This document shows positions 14,474-42,787 of a DNA stretch of 64,000 bases, piece after piece (within the stretch, counting starts at the first letter, position 1; every line of letters begins with the position of its first letter). The position numbers and the translations under genes were made by a program. The stretch spans positions 96,001-160,000 of the IMG/VR virus record IMGVR_UViG_3300050821_001527; one strand, given 5' to 3'. This DNA is from a virus (lineage: Duplodnaviria; Caudoviricetes). The notes below the pieces were generated by a model. The model had not been told where the DNA came from, searched no databases, and worked only from the letters and a program-made list of their open reading frames with translations.

Positions 14474-15061
14474 ATGTCGTGTGAAAAAACTCTGATTGAA
14501 AGAATCCAGACTGGGAAAGATGAAAAAGCGTTTGAAGAACTTATGGAGTTACATAGGGAAAGAACGCTTGGCTCCATAAAAAGCCAATGCCGTTTCTCTC
14601 CGGTTGACCCAAATGAAGTCTGGAATATCGCGCTCGTCAAGGTCTGGAACTCAATCGGGGCTTTTCGAGGCGACAGCAAATTCAGCACATGGCTGTATCA
14701 TATTGTCCGAAACGTCATTTATAATGAGTGGGCCAAACTGAATCGAATTTCCCGCAACGAGGTTCATCTTGAAAATATTGACACTCAGACCAGCGAATTT
14801 TCCACGTCAGAAACCCCGTTGTCAACAATTTCCAAGGAGGAATTTCAAGCCGAACTGGGTAATAGAATTTGCGGGTTGAAAATGGAGTTGGGGGAAAAGC
14901 ACAGGAAGGTTTTTGAATTAGTGTTTGAACAGGGCAAGTCTTACTCCGAAGTCGCGCAGTTGCTTGATTGCCCGCGTGGAACCGTAATGAGTCGAGTCTT
15001 TGCTGTCAGGAGAAAACTCCAAGCCGCCCTTGAAAAATATGAACATATTACAGCTAACTAA
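14474..15061 (+). CDS. ECF-type sigma factor (RpoE-like)
   Basis: AFEELM, FRGDSKFSTWLY.I..N, GKSYSEVAQLLDCPRGTVMSR. Confidence 0.9.
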   Translation: MSCEKTLIERIQTGKDEKAFEELMELHRERTLGSIKSQCRFSPVDPNEVWNIALVKVWNSIGAFRGDSKFSTWLYHIVRNVIYNEWAKLNRISRNEVHLENIDTQTSEFSTSETPLSTISKEEFQAELGNRICGLKMELGEKHRKVFELVFEQGKSYSEVAQLLDCPRGTVMSRVFAVRRKLQAALEKYEHITAN

Positions 15062-15854: not shown

Positions 15855-16442
15855 ATGCCCATCCCAACACCTAGAACCGGCGAGCAGCAAAAGGACTTCA
15901 TCAACCGATGTATGTCGGACAAGACCATGATGGGGGATTTTACTCAGAACGACCAGCGTTTCGCCGTGTGCATCAACAAATGGGAAAAGTCGCATCTGAA
16001 AGAAAACTCCACCGCTGGACTCAGCATTGACGCTACCCAGCCCTTCAAAGTCCAGTTTTCCATCGAAGCCTCAACAGGAACCGAGGTACTCGGAAACGTT
16101 CTTACCAACATCATCCAGATGCAGGAACAGTTCCGCCTTTTTCGTTACAACCATAAGGCCAACGCAAGTGTTCTGGCCGCTTACGACAAGATGGACAAGG
16201 AGCTTGGAAGCATGGTTGACTATTTCATTGATACCTTTGGCAAAAGTCTGAAAGACTCCGAAGTCGAAATCAATGTGCTGGATTTCAAAAGCGGCCTTGC
16301 TCGTCAAGCCGTTGCCCGTCAATACAAGGACTACATGGTAAATATTCCCCAATTCCTGTCCGTGGGGTATGCCGAAGTCTTAGCGTTCAGGGATAGGGTC
16401 GTGGATGACCTTAGCGAGCTACAAACACTTTTAAGCGCGTGA
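15855..16442 (+). CDS. Phage protein: MPIP.P..E...FI.RCM...QR.AVC N-terminal motif plus ferritin-like helical domain
   Basis: N-terminal motif recurrent in phage head-associated proteins. Confidence 0.55.
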   Translation: MPIPTPRTGEQQKDFINRCMSDKTMMGDFTQNDQRFAVCINKWEKSHLKENSTAGLSIDATQPFKVQFSIEASTGTEVLGNVLTNIIQMQEQFRLFRYNHKANASVLAAYDKMDKELGSMVDYFIDTFGKSLKDSEVEINVLDFKSGLARQAVARQYKDYMVNIPQFLSVGYAEVLAFRDRVVDDLSELQTLLSA

Positions 16443-16984
16443 AACTAACCGCAAAGCTTTGCACTATCCTTCTGCTATTTTTGGCCTGCCAGTCTTTCGC
16501 CGGGACAAACTCTTGGTTCACCACGTTTAAGCAAAGGGTTCTTCTCTCCACCAACCAGTTCTATGCCGCGAAGGAGATGACTTATGAAATCACTCCTACG
16601 ATTTCCGCCCCCTCTTTCTTAGGCAAGCCCAATTACACCATTGGTATGTCTATGGAATATGAGTATTGGCAGACCCCAAGCATGGGCACGGGAATGGAAA
16701 TCGGCACCTACGACTACAAGCACTTCGTTGACCATATTTCTGTGATGGAAGATTACCGTATCGTTCCGTTCATTTCCCCGATTTGGAACCGCGTGGCTTT
16801 GGAGGGCAAGATTGCCACCGAACACTTCTTCGTGGACAACTCCCACGACATTGGATTCGGCCTTGGAGTGGACTTTGCTTTCACCAGAAGGATTCGAGGG
16901 GAGTTCGATTTCATGCAGCATTACCGCCTAGATAGCTCGAAAAACGGGGCTACTTTAAGGGTGGGACTGCAATGGGTATTTTAA
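16439..16984 (+). CDS. Secreted outer-membrane beta-barrel-like protein
   Basis: Signal peptide, alternating strands, terminal GLQWVF. Confidence 0.65.
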   Translation: MKLTAKLCTILLLFLACQSFAGTNSWFTTFKQRVLLSTNQFYAAKEMTYEITPTISAPSFLGKPNYTIGMSMEYEYWQTPSMGTGMEIGTYDYKHFVDHISVMEDYRIVPFISPIWNRVALEGKIATEHFFVDNSHDIGFGLGVDFAFTRRIRGEFDFMQHYRLDSSKNGATLRVGLQWVF

Positions 16985-17006
16985 TTTGGATTTTGGATAG
17001 GAGGTT

Positions 17007-17014
17007 GTGTAATA
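17007..17014 (+). promoter_or_regulatory. Phage GTGTAATA promoter motif
   Basis: 6 nt upstream of ATG 17021. Confidence 0.65.
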
Positions 17015-17020
17015 TAGGTT

Positions 17021-17518
17021 ATGAAATATTTCAATAAATTCATTCTCGGTTTGGCCTTGGTTGCCTCGCTGTTCCTTGGTGTTGGCTGTGCCACTGGCCC
17101 TCAAATCAACCCAGCCTTGGAACAGGCCGGTATCACCACGGCTGCTGCCGTTGGAACGCAAATCGCCATTACCCCGCCAACGGGTAACGCTGCAAATATC
17201 CCTTATTTCAAGGCCGGGGAAAGCGCCCTGAACGTCCTTTCGGGCGAAACCAACCAGCTTTCCATCGCGGATATTACTGCCGCCTTGGATAAGGCCATCG
17301 GCAACAACCAATATGCGAATCTAATTGCCCCATTGGTTTTGAACATCCTGAACGCTGACTTGCAGAACACTGGCACCAACTCTGTCGTCCAGAACCAGCA
17401 ATTACGCGATGCCTGCGGTTGGATTGCCACGGGTATTGGTGAAGGTTTGGGCAACGCCAATCTGCCACCGGCTTCCGTCGCGCTCAAGTTGAGCCTCGTC
17501 AAGCCGAACAAGAAGTAA
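17021..17518 (+). CDS. Lipoprotein
   Basis: Basic N-terminus, hydrophobic core, lipobox LGVGC. Confidence 0.7.
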   Translation: MKYFNKFILGLALVASLFLGVGCATGPQINPALEQAGITTAAAVGTQIAITPPTGNAANIPYFKAGESALNVLSGETNQLSIADITAALDKAIGNNQYANLIAPLVLNILNADLQNTGTNSVVQNQQLRDACGWIATGIGEGLGNANLPPASVALKLSLVKPNKK

Positions 17519-18426
17519 TGAAAGCGTTGTGCTTGCAGGGTGGCGGTATCCTCGGATACGGCCAGTCTGTGATGTTGAGCGAGCTAGAGTCGGGGCTTAA
17601 CAGCCCTAGCTCTGGCTTGTTTGACATTATAGGGGGCACATCTGTTGGTTCTATCGTCGGAGCGCACCTAGCTCTTGGCATCCCCGCCTCTACCTGCAAG
17701 CAGTTCTTTACTACTCACTCTCCGCTTATCTTCAAGAAAAACTGGCTTTCGCTTATCTCGGTGTTATGGGGAGCTAAATACAATTCCTCAATTATCGAAG
17801 CAAAGCTTCAAGAATGTTTGGGTGATGCAACCCTTGCAGATTGCAAGACCAGATTTATCGCCACGTCCTACGATTGGGCAACCGACAGGCCGGTCTATTT
17901 CAAGTCGTTCGAGAAGTCTTCTGAAACGAAAGATTGGGTGGTCTTGGGCTACGATAGCCCGATAAAGCTTTGGCAGGTTTGCCGAGCGTCGTCAGCCGCC
18001 CAAACCTATTTCCCGGCCTACAAGTATCAAGATATGATTTTGATGGACGGCGGGAACATCGGGGATAACGCCTGTGACATGCTCGTTATCTCAGAGTGCG
18101 CTCAAATCGCGCCATTGACCGAATGGCAGGTTTTGTCGCTTGGGGCGGGTGATACCGTCTGGAAGGAGCGTCCGAGCCTCATGGTCAATCCTAGTGCGGC
18201 TGTAGCGGGTTTGGCAACCATCAAAATTATCTTTTCAGCCGGGGAGTCCTCGGACGTTTACAAAGCTTACCAAATACTTGGGGATAAAAATTACTTGAGG
18301 GTGTCGCCTGACTTGGGGAATGGCTATGCTATTGACGACGCTTCCGTGAAAACCTTGAACGCTCTCGGTGCCGCTGCTGACAAAGCAGGAATCTTGAAAC
18401 TGTTCAAAGACTCGTTCGGGGCTTAA
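17518..18426 (+). CDS. Patatin-like phospholipase
   Basis: GGG oxyanion loop, GTSVG nucleophile elbow, SSAA, DGG. Confidence 0.9.
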   Translation: MKALCLQGGGILGYGQSVMLSELESGLNSPSSGLFDIIGGTSVGSIVGAHLALGIPASTCKQFFTTHSPLIFKKNWLSLISVLWGAKYNSSIIEAKLQECLGDATLADCKTRFIATSYDWATDRPVYFKSFEKSSETKDWVVLGYDSPIKLWQVCRASSAAQTYFPAYKYQDMILMDGGNIGDNACDMLVISECAQIAPLTEWQVLSLGAGDTVWKERPSLMVNPSAAVAGLATIKIIFSAGESSDVYKAYQILGDKNYLRVSPDLGNGYAIDDASVKTLNALGAAADKAGILKLFKDSFGA

Positions 18427-19004
18427 TCCAGCCTCAAAATCGAACCAATATAGCCCCCCTGCGTCTTGTTGGCTATAACCTTCACCTTGACTACCCTGTC
18501 CTTTGCCAGAACCCTGAACGTATCTTCTGCGTCAATCCCATCCCTAATACACTCGTTCCAATGAGCCTCTACGCGCTCTCGGTCATCCGGGTGAATAATG
18601 TTCTTCCATCCGTTCCCTAAAAACACCGTCGAACTTTTGCCAAAGAACTGGGCATACTTCTCATTGACCCAAGTGCAGAAACCTGTGGGGTCGCTTTCAA
18701 AAATCGGGATTTCTTGGTTTTCCATAATCCAACGCTGGCGATAGAAGATTTTTTCAGTAAGCTCGTTGTTACGGGTAATGTCTTTCTCCATTTTGGAGAT
18801 TTTATCTTTCAGGGAGGAGCCGTGGTTCGGGGTAAGTTCAGTAAATACAACCATCAGCCTTTCTCTATCCTGCTTGAGAGATACCACAGTTTTTCGCAGC
18901 CACCTAATCATAACATGGCCCGTTTTCCACAGAAAGCCTAGTCCAGCTATGGCAGCAGCGATAGTATAGTAGATATTCTCCGGTGATGTCAAGTGAAAAG
19001 TCAT
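18423..19004 (-). CDS. Membrane protein with C-terminal PAS domain
   Basis: One TM helix, ELTPNHGSSLKD motif, PAS (WVNE, LGNGWKNIIHPDD). Confidence 0.8.
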   Translation of the reverse strand: MTFHLTSPENIYYTIAAAIAGLGFLWKTGHVMIRWLRKTVVSLKQDRERLMVVFTELTPNHGSSLKDKISKMEKDITRNNELTEKIFYRQRWIMENQEIPIFESDPTGFCTWVNEKYAQFFGKSSTVFLGNGWKNIIHPDDRERVEAHWNECIRDGIDAEDTFRVLAKDRVVKVKVIANKTQGGYIGSILRLD

Positions 19005-19167
19005 ATTGTTCCTGCCAATAATTACACACATTGATTGGATAAGAGACATTTGTAGGGTAAATACGGACAAATTTTTTGAATAAAACACCCGTTCCGTGTA
19101 TCATATACTTGAAGGCGGAACTGTGTTCCCCTTCGTAAAAGTCGCCCAAGGGCGCAGAAAGGCAAAA

Positions 19168-22767: not shown

Positions 22768-23214
22768 ATGAGCAGCGTTGACTCACTCGAAAACCACGAC
22801 CAGTTCCATTTGGAACAACTGCACAAGCTTTCCTGTCAAAGCGGCTCGAAGGACATTCTCGTTATTGACGATAGCACGGGCGACTTGATGGACATTCAGA
22901 AGATTATGAACCTCAAGTATGCAGACCAATTTCACGTAAGGTATTGTCTGGACGCTGAAAAGGGGATTGAGATTCTCAAGGAAAACAATTTCTTTTTGGT
23001 TTTGCTCGATTTCAAGATGCCGAAGTTGAACGGTCTTGAAGTAATCGAGACGGTAAACAAGATGAAGCAGAACGTTCCGTTCGTAGTTTTGACGGGATAC
23101 GGCGACCCATCCATGCGCGAAGCATTGACAAGATTGGGCGTAATGCTCCTGTTGGACAAGCCAATCACGGAGAAGAAGCTGGACATGCTCCTGACTTTGA
23201 CTCACGCGAAATAA
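22768..23214 (+). CDS. Stand-alone response-regulator receiver (CheY-like)
   Basis: ILVIDD, LLD.KMP..NG, VVLTG, DKP. Confidence 0.9.
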   Translation: MSSVDSLENHDQFHLEQLHKLSCQSGSKDILVIDDSTGDLMDIQKIMNLKYADQFHVRYCLDAEKGIEILKENNFFLVLLDFKMPKLNGLEVIETVNKMKQNVPFVVLTGYGDPSMREALTRLGVMLLLDKPITEKKLDMLLTLTHAK

Positions 23215-40397: not shown

Positions 40398-41260
40398 ATG
40401 CAAGACTGGATTTTCAAAGTCGGCAACTCCATCAATCGAATCGCCACTCACGATTCCAGTGACGGCGGGACGTGGAACGACGGCACCATATTGACGGAAT
40501 ATGGCATGGTAGATTGTATGGCCCAAGGTTCAAGCAATTTTACGCCGCACAGCCGATTTGATTTCGTCCACAAGGGTAAATGCTACAGCCGTTCTTACGA
40601 CAGGCGTTTTACCAAGCGTGGCCTGTCCATGATTGCAAAACGCTTTGCCAAGGAAATTTCGGAAACAAGATAACATGAAACTCACCAAAAAACTCATATC
40701 GCGCTGTGCCCCCATCATCAAATACAACGAAGCGGGGGAACGCCTGCTCGTCGGATACCGCCGCAAGTCCTCGGTGTCCAAAAAGGCCCGCGATACCTAC
40801 ATGCTTTCGATGCCGCAGGTTTTACCGCCAGTCATTGCACCGGACGGAAACCCGCTCTCGAAAATCGTAAGGGATTTGGTCGAGAAGGCCCAATCGGAAA
40901 TTGACAAGGAAAAACTGGAACAAGCCCTAAAGGAAGCCGAAGCCAATGAAAAAGCATCTTAACAAGATTATCGCCCTGTTCGCGGCGGGAGGGCTAGTGA
41001 TAGGTGGCTATCATTTCGGCTCTCAAAGCAAACCTCGCCCGCGCATAATGCTCTATTGGACGAATCCCATGTCGGCCAATACGAATGCGTTCGTCGAGAT
41101 ATGGGCGACCACCAACCTGCATAACTGGAACCTCAAGACTACCATCCCGTCCAGTCAAACCAATATCTACTTCCCGACCACGGAGATTGCGGAATTTTTC
41201 CGACTCAGAAATGCCTTGGTTTCTGGAAGTGTGACGCAGTATTCGGGCTGGAACCAATAA
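40398..41260 (+). other. Three hypothetical CDS (40398-40673; 40675-40962; 40946-41260 membrane-anchored)
   Basis: Contiguous same-strand ORFs. Confidence 0.55.
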
Positions 41261-41838
41261 TGAAAATCACCCCCAACAGTTTCTTCGACGGGGATTTCTA
41301 TAAGATAAATCTCAACGTTTATCTGTCGAACGGAGGCTTCAAGGATTGCCAGAAGCCCGAAGTCGCGCAAAGGCTGATAAACAAGTTGGGGCGTTTGACG
41401 TGGGGCGGATACGGGGAAAACCGCAAGGATATTTTTCAAAACAGTTATCTGGCCAAGACGGGGAACTTTTATCACTTGGGGGTTGACATTAACGTTCCAA
41501 AGGGAACGCCGGTTAAGGCTCCATTCGATTGCGAAGTCCTGCAAGCGTGGCCCGACCCCGATACCGACATTGGTTGGGGCGGAAGGGTCATCCTCAAGGC
41601 AAGCGATTGGCTACCGTTGCTTGTTCTCGGTCATTTGCACCCAAAGAAACTGCCCTTTTGCCGAGCCTACAAACAGGGAGAAGTTCTTGGGGAAGTCGGG
41701 ACATGGCCGCTCAACGGGAACACGTTTGAACATCTGCATGTCCAATGTATCAAGCATAATAAATTCGATAAATTTGACGGCTACGGAAGTCTTGCCCAGT
41801 TGAGGCACAACCCCGACCCGATGGAAGTAGATTTTTAG
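41260..41838 (+). CDS. M23-family peptidase-like protein
   Basis: HLGVDI...GTPV.AP, GH, G.VG..NG...HLH. Confidence 0.8.
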   Translation: MKITPNSFFDGDFYKINLNVYLSNGGFKDCQKPEVAQRLINKLGRLTWGGYGENRKDIFQNSYLAKTGNFYHLGVDINVPKGTPVKAPFDCEVLQAWPDPDTDIGWGGRVILKASDWLPLLVLGHLHPKKLPFCRAYKQGEVLGEVGTWPLNGNTFEHLHVQCIKHNKFDKFDGYGSLAQLRHNPDPMEVDF

Positions 41839-42140: not shown

Positions 42141-42161
42141 TTGGTAGCGAGTTGGTTTTTG

Positions 42162-42169
42162 GTGTAATA
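42162..42169 (+). promoter_or_regulatory. Phage GTGTAATA promoter motif
   Basis: 6 nt upstream of ATG 42176. Confidence 0.65.
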
Positions 42170-42175
42170 TCAGGT

Positions 42176-42787
42176 ATGAACAGTGGTATCTACTTGATAA
42201 CCAACATAATCAACGGCAAGAAATACATCGGGTCTTCGTCAAGATTGCATAGGCGTTGGCGCGAACACGTTAGAGATTTGGAGAGGGGAGTTCATCAAAA
42301 CCCCTATTTTCAAAAGGCATGGGACAAACATGGCCTTGCGAGCTTCCAATATTCCGTGCTTGAGGAATGTGATAGGACTCAACTCCTTGCGAGAGAGTCA
42401 TTTTGGATAGAAGCCCACCAGAGCTTTCAGAGGGAATTGGGATATAACCTATGCCGATTCCCTCAACATTATGCCCTTGGCCTCAAACGCCGTCCTGAAA
42501 CGATTGCCCGTATGAGCAAAGCTCTTAGCGGCCAAAACCATCCCGGTTGGGGCAAGAAGCTCCCCAAGTCTCAAGTTAAAAAAATGGCAGATGCTCAACG
42601 AGGGGTTTCTAAACCTACTTCCGGCAGCGAAAGGAAGATATTTGAATTGCTGTCGCCCGAAGGCAAACTCTTGAGAATAAAGGGATTAAGAGTATTTTGT
42701 CGTGAGCAAGACCTTAGCCCTTCCATGATTTGTCGGGTTCTCAGTGGGAAACAGGCCGTTCATAAAGGGTGGTCACTATCTTCTTAA
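42176..42787 (+). CDS. GIY-YIG homing endonuclease with NUMOD3-like repeats
   Basis: SGIY.I.N..NGKKYIGSS, R..H, GYN, N.P.WGKK. Confidence 0.9.
   Translation: MNSGIYLITNIINGKKYIGSSSRLHRRWREHVRDLERGVHQNPYFQKAWDKHGLASFQYSVLEECDRTQLLARESFWIEAHQSFQRELGYNLCRFPQHYALGLKRRPETIARMSKALSGQNHPGWGKKLPKSQVKKMADAQRGVSKPTSGSERKIFELLSPEGKLLRIKGLRVFCREQDLSPSMICRVLSGKQAVHKGWSLSS

Follow-up and report, generated by a model that had tools for sequence, protein, structure and literature searches.

A PAS domain fused to the membrane module of small phage proteins, with a possible role in lysis timing

The DNA considered here is a 64,000-nucleotide stretch (hereafter, the window) comprising positions 96,001 to 160,000 of the IMG/VR virus record IMGVR_UViG_3300050821_001527 (Duplodnaviria; Caudoviricetes), a soil-phage record of 202,882 bp that is estimated to be 91% complete. 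On the minus strand of the window, an open reading frame at 18423..19004 starts with an ATG at 19004, ends with a stop codon at 18423-18425 and encodes a protein of 193 amino acids, in which a membrane anchor, a signature motif, a linker helix and a PAS domain follow one another. A longer frame from a GTG at 19088 is present upstream. This alternative start is unlikely because 31 homologues align from the Met at 19004 and because an AGGAA site precedes the ATG. The upstream signals on the same strand (19009..19027) consist of this Shine-Dalgarno-like AGGAA at 19009-19013, 5-9 nt ahead of the ATG, and of GTGTAATT at 19020-19027, 15 nt ahead of it, which is a copy of the element GTGTAATW. Parts of the stretch are present in soil metatranscriptome runs. 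Contigs of 207 and 210 nt are identical to parts of the gene; they occur in one of two runs, DNA carry-over is possible, and level, strand and timing of expression are not readable from them.

To describe the protein, we used an AlphaFold model built on 32 family members, with a mean predicted local distance difference test score (pLDDT) of 87.9 and values above 95 in the PAS part. The model consists of a helix at residues 8-57, a loop at 58-64, modelled with lower confidence, which coincides with the P-N-H-G-S-S core of the motif, a helix at 65-95 and a PAS fold at 101-192. The single membrane helix (residues 10-28; 18921..18977, minus strand, as for all parts of the protein) is rich in Ala and Gly and moderately hydrophobic (Kyte-Doolittle 1.27 for the best 18-mer). 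No Lys or Arg precedes the hydrophobic segment, approximately residues 11-28, and four follow it, with family means of 0.6 before and 3.4 after. By the positive-inside rule, this places the N-terminus outside the cell and both the motif and the PAS domain in the cytoplasm. A basic juxtamembrane helix (residues 29-52; 18849..18920), supported by the model and the family alignment, extends the membrane helix into the cytoplasm. It leads to the signature motif, ELTPNHGSSLKD (residues 56-67; 18804..18839), which stands out by its invariant residues and by the profile matches given below, and whose PNHGSS forms the break between the two long helices; this is the sole copy of the motif in the 202,882-bp genome. 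The linker helix into the PAS domain (residues 69-95; 18720..18800) has conserved N79, T83, R89, Q90 and W92. A complete PAS domain of the PAS_3 type (residues 96-193; 18426..18719) ends the protein and, because the PAS fold runs to the C-terminus, there is no output domain. The original prediction, made from the sequence alone, had described one transmembrane helix, the motif and a complete PAS domain lacking an output domain; the reading frame, Pfam and the model agree with it in every point. We regard this architecture, together with the homology of the N-terminal module set out below, as near certain. Prediction of a two-copy complex from the family alignment gave a score of 0.08, which is evidence neither way.

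Pfam finds only PAS models in the fusion protein. PAS_3 (PF08447) matches with an E of 1.4e-10, its 41.8 bits exceeding the cut-off of 25.6, and PAS_4 and PAS likewise score above theirs. In the model, strands at 101-104, 110-113, 159-167, 170-181 and 184-192, with helices between them and pLDDT above 95, form a five-stranded antiparallel sheet. Conserved residues of the domain include C110, W112, W133 and W149, and a conserved GNGWKN-x-IH-x-x-DRERV stretch is typical of PAS_3. The top Foldseek matches are all PAS domains, at template modelling (TM) scores of 0.7-0.8 by target and about 15% identity, and they span the LOV, FixL, PYP, ARNT and MmoS ligand classes. We assign no cofactor, because the matches scatter over these classes at such low identity. 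The flavin-cysteine motif of LOV domains and the haem ligands of FixL are not recognisable in the domain. Short stand-alone PAS and LOV proteins (RsLOV, PpSB2-LOV and the PAS of CPS_1291) resemble the window protein in their PAS fold, N-terminal helix and lack of enzymatic output, with Foldseek TM scores of 0.55-0.82 by target. They share only about 15% identity with it and, unlike them, the window protein is anchored in the membrane through a phage-specific module.

The same layout recurs in a family of such fusions. A protein search returned at least 88 clusters of about 200 residues (E 6e-21 to 4e-77, with one weak outlier), and a scan of viral contigs added 33 fusion loci, on contigs of 80-300 kb where length suffices to judge. 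In an alignment of 32 fusion sequences, 33-61% identical to the window protein, E56, N60, G62, S64, K66 and D67 are invariant in all 32. Six invariant residues among sequences otherwise this divergent show that the motif is not due to chance. The motif block is also the most conserved segment of the protein, its mean major-residue frequency being 0.79; the corresponding means are 0.59 in the PAS domain and 0.39 in the membrane helix. Such conservation speaks for a function of the module beyond anchoring. Across the widest set of fusions, the motif keeps only N, G, S and D; two divergent fusions (L040:2432-3007 and L041:7842-8417) have LGPNGGKSLYD, with the Glu and Lys of the motif replaced. 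The closest homologues (P0003, P0005, P0009, P0012 and P0014; 54-61% identical) carry an extra C-terminal tail of 20-45 residues after the PAS domain, with at least four cysteines in a CP-x-C ... C pattern. This tail, which the window protein does not have, may be a small metal-binding or redox element.

Public annotation describes members of the fusion family as 'PAS domain-containing' only. Tblastn against 50,697 GenBank phage records, with the whole protein, its relative P0083 and the stand-alone proteins P0109 and P0107 as queries, gave nothing usable and no cultured or annotated phage with the fusion. In full-text literature searches on the motif strings and on phage lysis proteins with a PAS domain, no paper turned up that describes the fusion or the motif. 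The combination of a known but barely characterised membrane module with a PAS domain is new.

We then considered where the N-terminal module comes from. The only match in PHROGs is phrog_9869, a family of unknown function, which aligns with residues 53-83 (E 2.6e-5 for the whole protein). With residues 1-95 alone the E is 3.4e-6, over profile positions 64-95 of 98, and phrog_9869 matches every fusion member tested. Pfam gave no family, DUF2746 included, for residues 1-95 or for 20 stand-alone proteins. A phmmer search of residues 1-95 against 1.8 billion representatives produced 20 matches, nearly all from the fusion family (an 871-aa repeat protein among them was judged spurious). One of the matches was a stand-alone protein of 104 aa with a membrane helix, EVSPNHGSSMKD and a coiled coil, whose motif is common to its relatives. 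When a profile of the fusion N-termini was compared by hhalign with one of the stand-alone proteins, the two aligned with 97.9% probability and an E of 4.3e-13 over a core of 29 profile columns. The joint profile of both groups recovers 204 small one-helix motif proteins of 64-170 aa with the same plan, and the viral-contig scan found 21 stand-alone loci, the shortest versions being 63-65 aa. Stand-alone proteins tested against phrog_9869 match at 1e-11 to 1e-13. The common motif, E-x-[ST]-P-N-[HG]-G-S-S-[LIM]-K-D, marks small single-pass phage proteins, and its placement, 20-30 residues beyond a single membrane helix, is found in the window protein too, by the joint alignment and the model. 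Proteins of phrog_9869 (60-100 aa, EL[KT]PNHGSSLKD) are like the window protein in their N-terminal membrane helix, basic juxtamembrane stretch, invariant motif residues and the amphipathic helix that follows. They end 20-40 residues past the motif, whereas the window protein adds a 98-residue PAS domain to reach its 193 aa, and they occur in small phage contigs, whereas the fusion occurs in phages of about 80-300 kb.

Six independent cases place a stand-alone relative directly beside an endolysin or holin gene. P0172 adjoins an Amidase_2 gene, P0154 lies downstream of NlpC/P60, Amidase_2 and Phage_holin_9 genes, and P0177 lies downstream of a Phage_lysozyme gene. The copy in locus L058 is followed by a CHAP endolysin (4e-21) and then by a small one-helix membrane protein, and that in L046 lies downstream of an M23 lysostaphin-like enzyme; the mycobacteriophages make up the sixth case. 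A PDB sequence search with three unannotated neighbours of stand-alone genes found nothing, and L054, L044 and L057 were not counted as lysin-adjacent. The arrangement in L054, a 133-aa protein, a 46-aa membrane protein and the motif protein, resembles a lysis cassette.

The mycobacteriophage case ties the module to proteins that have been studied experimentally. One small stand-alone relative carries the UniRef label DUF2746. In the F1 phage Che8, gene 35 (L005:7205-7579) is downstream of lysin A, lysin B and the holin, and its product, gp35, matches PF10874 (DUF2746) at 5.8e-13, as a positive control, and phrog_404 at 2.3e-45. P0172, which has the canonical motif and is recovered by the joint profile, matches both phrog_404 (3.4e-7) and phrog_9869 (8.5e-6). 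Its full-length BLASTP alignment with Che8 gp35 has an E of 2e-12, with ELSPNHGSSMKD set against EQTVNTHDTNMRD and the C-terminal helices nearly identical. With P0172 and other intermediates bridging them, phrog_9869, phrog_404 and DUF2746 appear to form one continuum, and their unification through one signature motif is new. The N-terminus of the window protein is thus related to phrog_9869 by profile search and probably, via the full-length similarity of intermediates, to the lysis-associated phrog_404 and DUF2746.

For members of the DUF2746 end of this continuum, experiments have shown a role in the timing of lysis. Gp5 of phage Ms6 binds the holin Gp4, and loss of Gp5 delays lysis (PMC6116114). 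LysF1b of F1-cluster mycobacteriophages has one helix, an N-out/C-in topology and a PF10874 match, and its deletion results in loss of defined, timely lysis triggering (PMC13056207). Overproduction of Waterfoul gp32, a one-helix DUF2746 protein whose gene comes right after that of the holin, has a mild toxic effect (PMC9339283); toxicity of overproduced DUF2746 proteins is reported in both studies (PMC9339283, PMC13056207), and the charged C-terminal tail of gp32 is needed for complementation (PMC13056207). The same gene lies beside the holin in 643 mycobacteriophage records, often labelled 'minor tail protein'. Given the position after the holin and the published deletion phenotypes, this label is probably wrong, both for phrog_404 and for hundreds of mycobacteriophage genes of the DUF2746/LysF1b type. 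Ms6 Gp5, LysF1b, Waterfoul gp32 and Che8 gp35 share with the window protein one N-terminal membrane helix, an N-out/C-in topology, a cytoplasmic helical region and a related motif, the EQTVNTHDTNMRD of Che8 gp35 being a diverged form of the motif in the window. They differ in that their genes lie directly downstream of the holin in mycobacteriophage cassettes, unlike the fusion gene, and in that their hosts are actinobacteria, whereas the host of the window phage is probably Gram-negative, as its own lipoprotein and barrel genes suggest.

Since the module is probably shared with a lysis-timing family, and since several of its small relatives sit beside lysins, we tentatively favour a sensor-coupled lysis-timing protein as the explanation of the fusion, at somewhat short of an even chance. 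The protein is a bitopic inner-membrane protein with a short N-terminus outside, a membrane helix, a cytoplasmic helix-loop-helix built around the PNHGSS loop, and the PAS domain. In a clade of large phages, the PAS domain has taken the place of the charged coiled-coil tail of the small relatives. The membrane module would keep the job that it has in those relatives, either assembling with a holin-type partner or being one, and would tune the time at which the membrane lesion forms. The PAS domain would then make this timing depend on a cytoplasmic cue, perhaps a metabolite or cofactor, the redox or energy state, or a partner protein. Both the lysis-timing role and any ligand are what we infer. 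The neighbourhood adds weak support, as the fusion gene stands beside exported or envelope-directed genes in several lineages. They comprise the barrel-lipoprotein-patatin cassette described below (window, L027-29 and L031, and in L019 a patatin gene after one for a signal-peptide protein) and lipoprotein pairs in L009, L010 and L012, where a lipoprotein or barrel protein precedes the fusion. Exported-protein genes occur within 1.5 kb of fusion genes at 9/94, compared with 11/260 (p 0.07), which is a trend and not proof.

The wider claim is that a holin-accessory module under the control of a cytoplasmic PAS sensor sets the time of lysis, or of some other breach of the membrane, throughout a clade of large environmental phages; it is doubtful, if a credible possibility. 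What makes a phage lyse its host at a given time is a classic question; holin concentration and membrane potential are known to feed into it, as is superinfection in T4-like and a few other phages. Conservation of a fusion between a lysis module and a PAS domain would suggest that the condition of the host cytoplasm is an additional input. If the wider claim is true, these phages would be the first whose lysis clock responds to a chemical, redox or light cue from within the cell, unlike that of T4, where RI senses superinfection in the periplasm, and the motif of phrog_9869 and DUF2746 would be the effector end of a PAS-gated switch. RI is the antiholin of T4, a sensor for lysis inhibition that acts on the holin T (PMC11413866). 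Conceptually it is alike, a single-pass membrane protein whose sensor domain modulates holin firing. The two proteins are unrelated in sequence, and RI has its sensor in the periplasm, the window protein its PAS domain in the cytoplasm; the analogy is functional and hypothetical.

Several findings weigh against a role in lysis timing. In roughly half of the distinct stand-alone loci inspected, eight viral loci, the gene borders a block of tail-fibre genes and no lysin is recognised nearby; collagen-like fibre genes dominate the neighbour statistics there. The family is for this reason not strictly one of lysis cassettes, so that the statement in the original prediction, that the motif is typical of small membrane proteins in phage lysis cassettes, holds for a good part of the family, by the six adjacencies, and not for the rest. 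Around the fusion gene itself, no recognisable endolysin or holin is present within about 8 kb, either in the window or in the 33 related loci, in contrast to the several stand-alone members beside such genes; none of the 25 neighbour families listed for the related loci is an endolysin or holin family. Ribonucleotide reductase leads the list of neighbours (10 of 99 proteins), followed by AAA/MoxR ATPases (7) and Mom-like proteins (4), a setting of nucleotide metabolism. A search of the genome for the endolysin families PF00959, PF01510, PF01464 and PF13539 gave no match, which is not proof of absence because the record is only about 91% complete. Among the families tried, the sole match resembling a peptidoglycan hydrolase is an M23 metallopeptidase 22 kb away (41470-41760 within an open reading frame at 41260-41838, plus strand; 38.6 bits, E 1.7e-10). 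With four endolysin families unmatched and the M23 gene this far off, no lysis cassette is recognisable around the fusion gene. In large T4-like phages the genes for lysis are dispersed over the genome, and the missing neighbours therefore carry limited weight.

Other points against concern the protein. PF10874 matches neither residues 1-95, at E up to 10, nor anything in the whole genome, and direct profile comparisons with Che8 gp35 are insignificant, with probabilities of 1.5% for the fusion N-termini and 31% for the stand-alone proteins. Because these direct comparisons fail, the protein is tied to the members studied by experiment only through intermediates. The charged C-terminal tail is absent from the window protein, with the PAS domain in its place, and the ligand of this domain is not readable from the Foldseek matches or from diagnostic residues. 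The signal-responsive lysis-timing regulator that had originally been proposed is partly supported, in that the family association holds, and the timing role of the fusion is an inference.

The setting of the gene would also fit a membrane-tethered PAS sensor without a role in lysis, whose module only anchors or oligomerises the protein or recruits a host membrane partner, and which relays a cytoplasmic signal to regulators of phage or host in the early or middle programme. Nucleotide metabolism could be the target, or a phage sigma factor together with a receiver protein. The fusion gene directly follows ribonucleotide reductase genes in most related loci, a sigma factor lies 2-7 kb from it in the window (sigma-70 family, 14474-15061, plus strand) and in at least nine loci, being syntenic in many relatives, and the window encodes a receiver-only response regulator at 22768-23214 (plus strand; Response_reg E 2.5e-18). 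PAS-only proteins commonly act via protein partners, and the lack of a lysin or holin nearby would be expected. Yet other loci do not keep the receiver gene close to the fusion, and the linkage to sigma factor and reductase looks like shared gene order within one phage clade, not like coupling. Moreover, conservation is higher in the motif block than in the PAS domain, and the block also occurs in small, sensorless proteins that are often encoded in lysis cassettes, which indicates a membrane function of the module itself. We consider a tethered sensor of this kind, the main rival, unlikely, though by no means far-fetched. A chance or convergent match of the motif, with the N-terminus an unrelated anchor, is already disfavoured and very improbable. 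The aligned core is short, at 29 columns, and there is no direct Pfam match to DUF2746, but the hhalign E-value is 4.3e-13, every fusion member tested matches phrog_9869, the invariant residues are identical in the fusion and stand-alone groups, and both groups have the same order and spacing of membrane helix, 20-30-residue helix, motif and helix.

The fusion might instead control or localise a neighbouring envelope cassette, for example by holding a cytoplasmic patatin at the membrane or releasing it on a PAS signal, with a lipid step in takeover or late breakdown. In the window, genes for a signal-peptide barrel-like protein, a lipoprotein and a patatin-like phospholipase (16439..18426, plus strand; patatin E 1.3e-22) converge on the fusion gene, which the patatin gene abuts. 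The barrel and lipoprotein genes are conserved in front of patatin, the three genes lying directly upstream of the fusion gene and on the same strand in L027, L028 and L029 (L027:2790-4850) and in L031 (5931-7880). In L019 (6537-7933), a patatin gene preceded by a signal-peptide protein is directly upstream. In all of these (L019, L027-29 and L031), the patatin gene ends 68-125 nt before the fusion gene. In the window, copies of GTGTAATW stand ahead of the lipoprotein gene (17007) and of the fusion gene. This cassette, however, accompanies the fusion in only about 4 of 22 distinct lineages, the window counted. Because most fusion genes have no patatin nearby, the conserved function of the family cannot depend on it, and we hold such a role to be quite improbable. 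Slimmer still is the chance that the protein serves superinfection exclusion or host takeover, for instance by blocking DNA entry or host signalling, its anchor being no more than an ancestral feature in common with lysis-cassette proteins. Exclusion factors are common among the small single-pass membrane proteins that phages encode outside lysis cassettes, many of the stand-alone relatives are beside tail-fibre genes and not lysins, and the toxicity of overproduced DUF2746 proteins noted above would suit such a role. Nothing specific speaks in its favour, though, and a cytoplasmic PAS sensor has no obvious part in exclusion.

The remaining features of the locus touch these questions less directly. 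On its other side, the fusion gene in the window is flanked by a divergent DUF7918 gene, and homing endonucleases lie within 9 kb of it, as do the sigma factor, the ribonucleotide reductase and the receiver-only response regulator. Several relatives (L013, L017, L030, L036 and L037) have split or interrupted ribonucleotide reductase genes just upstream of the fusion, and five neighbour proteins of fusion genes have Intein_splicing matches. A GIY-YIG/HNH homing endonuclease at 42152-42787 is downstream of the M23 reading frame. Within the patatin cassette, the signal-peptide protein ends in an aromatic residue, as outer-membrane barrels do, and the patatin is cytoplasmic. Directly before the fusion gene in three relatives (L009:7422-7953, L010:7419-7950 and L012:7439-7955), there is a gene for a protein of 60-64 aa, hydrophobic at its N-terminus and charged in its tail. 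The 3' end of this gene is overlapped by one for a 113-127-aa lipoprotein with a shared DNGERNSG motif, which recalls spanin pairs. An Atlas search with the small L009 lipoprotein gave a score of 0.77, a lead only and not an identification. GTGTAATW itself occurs in 18 copies in the window, compared with 2.45 expected from shuffles, and may be a phage-specific promoter element. Its sites include 13511, 15841, 17007, 19020, 21393, 22754 and 42162, and many are located just upstream of start codons.

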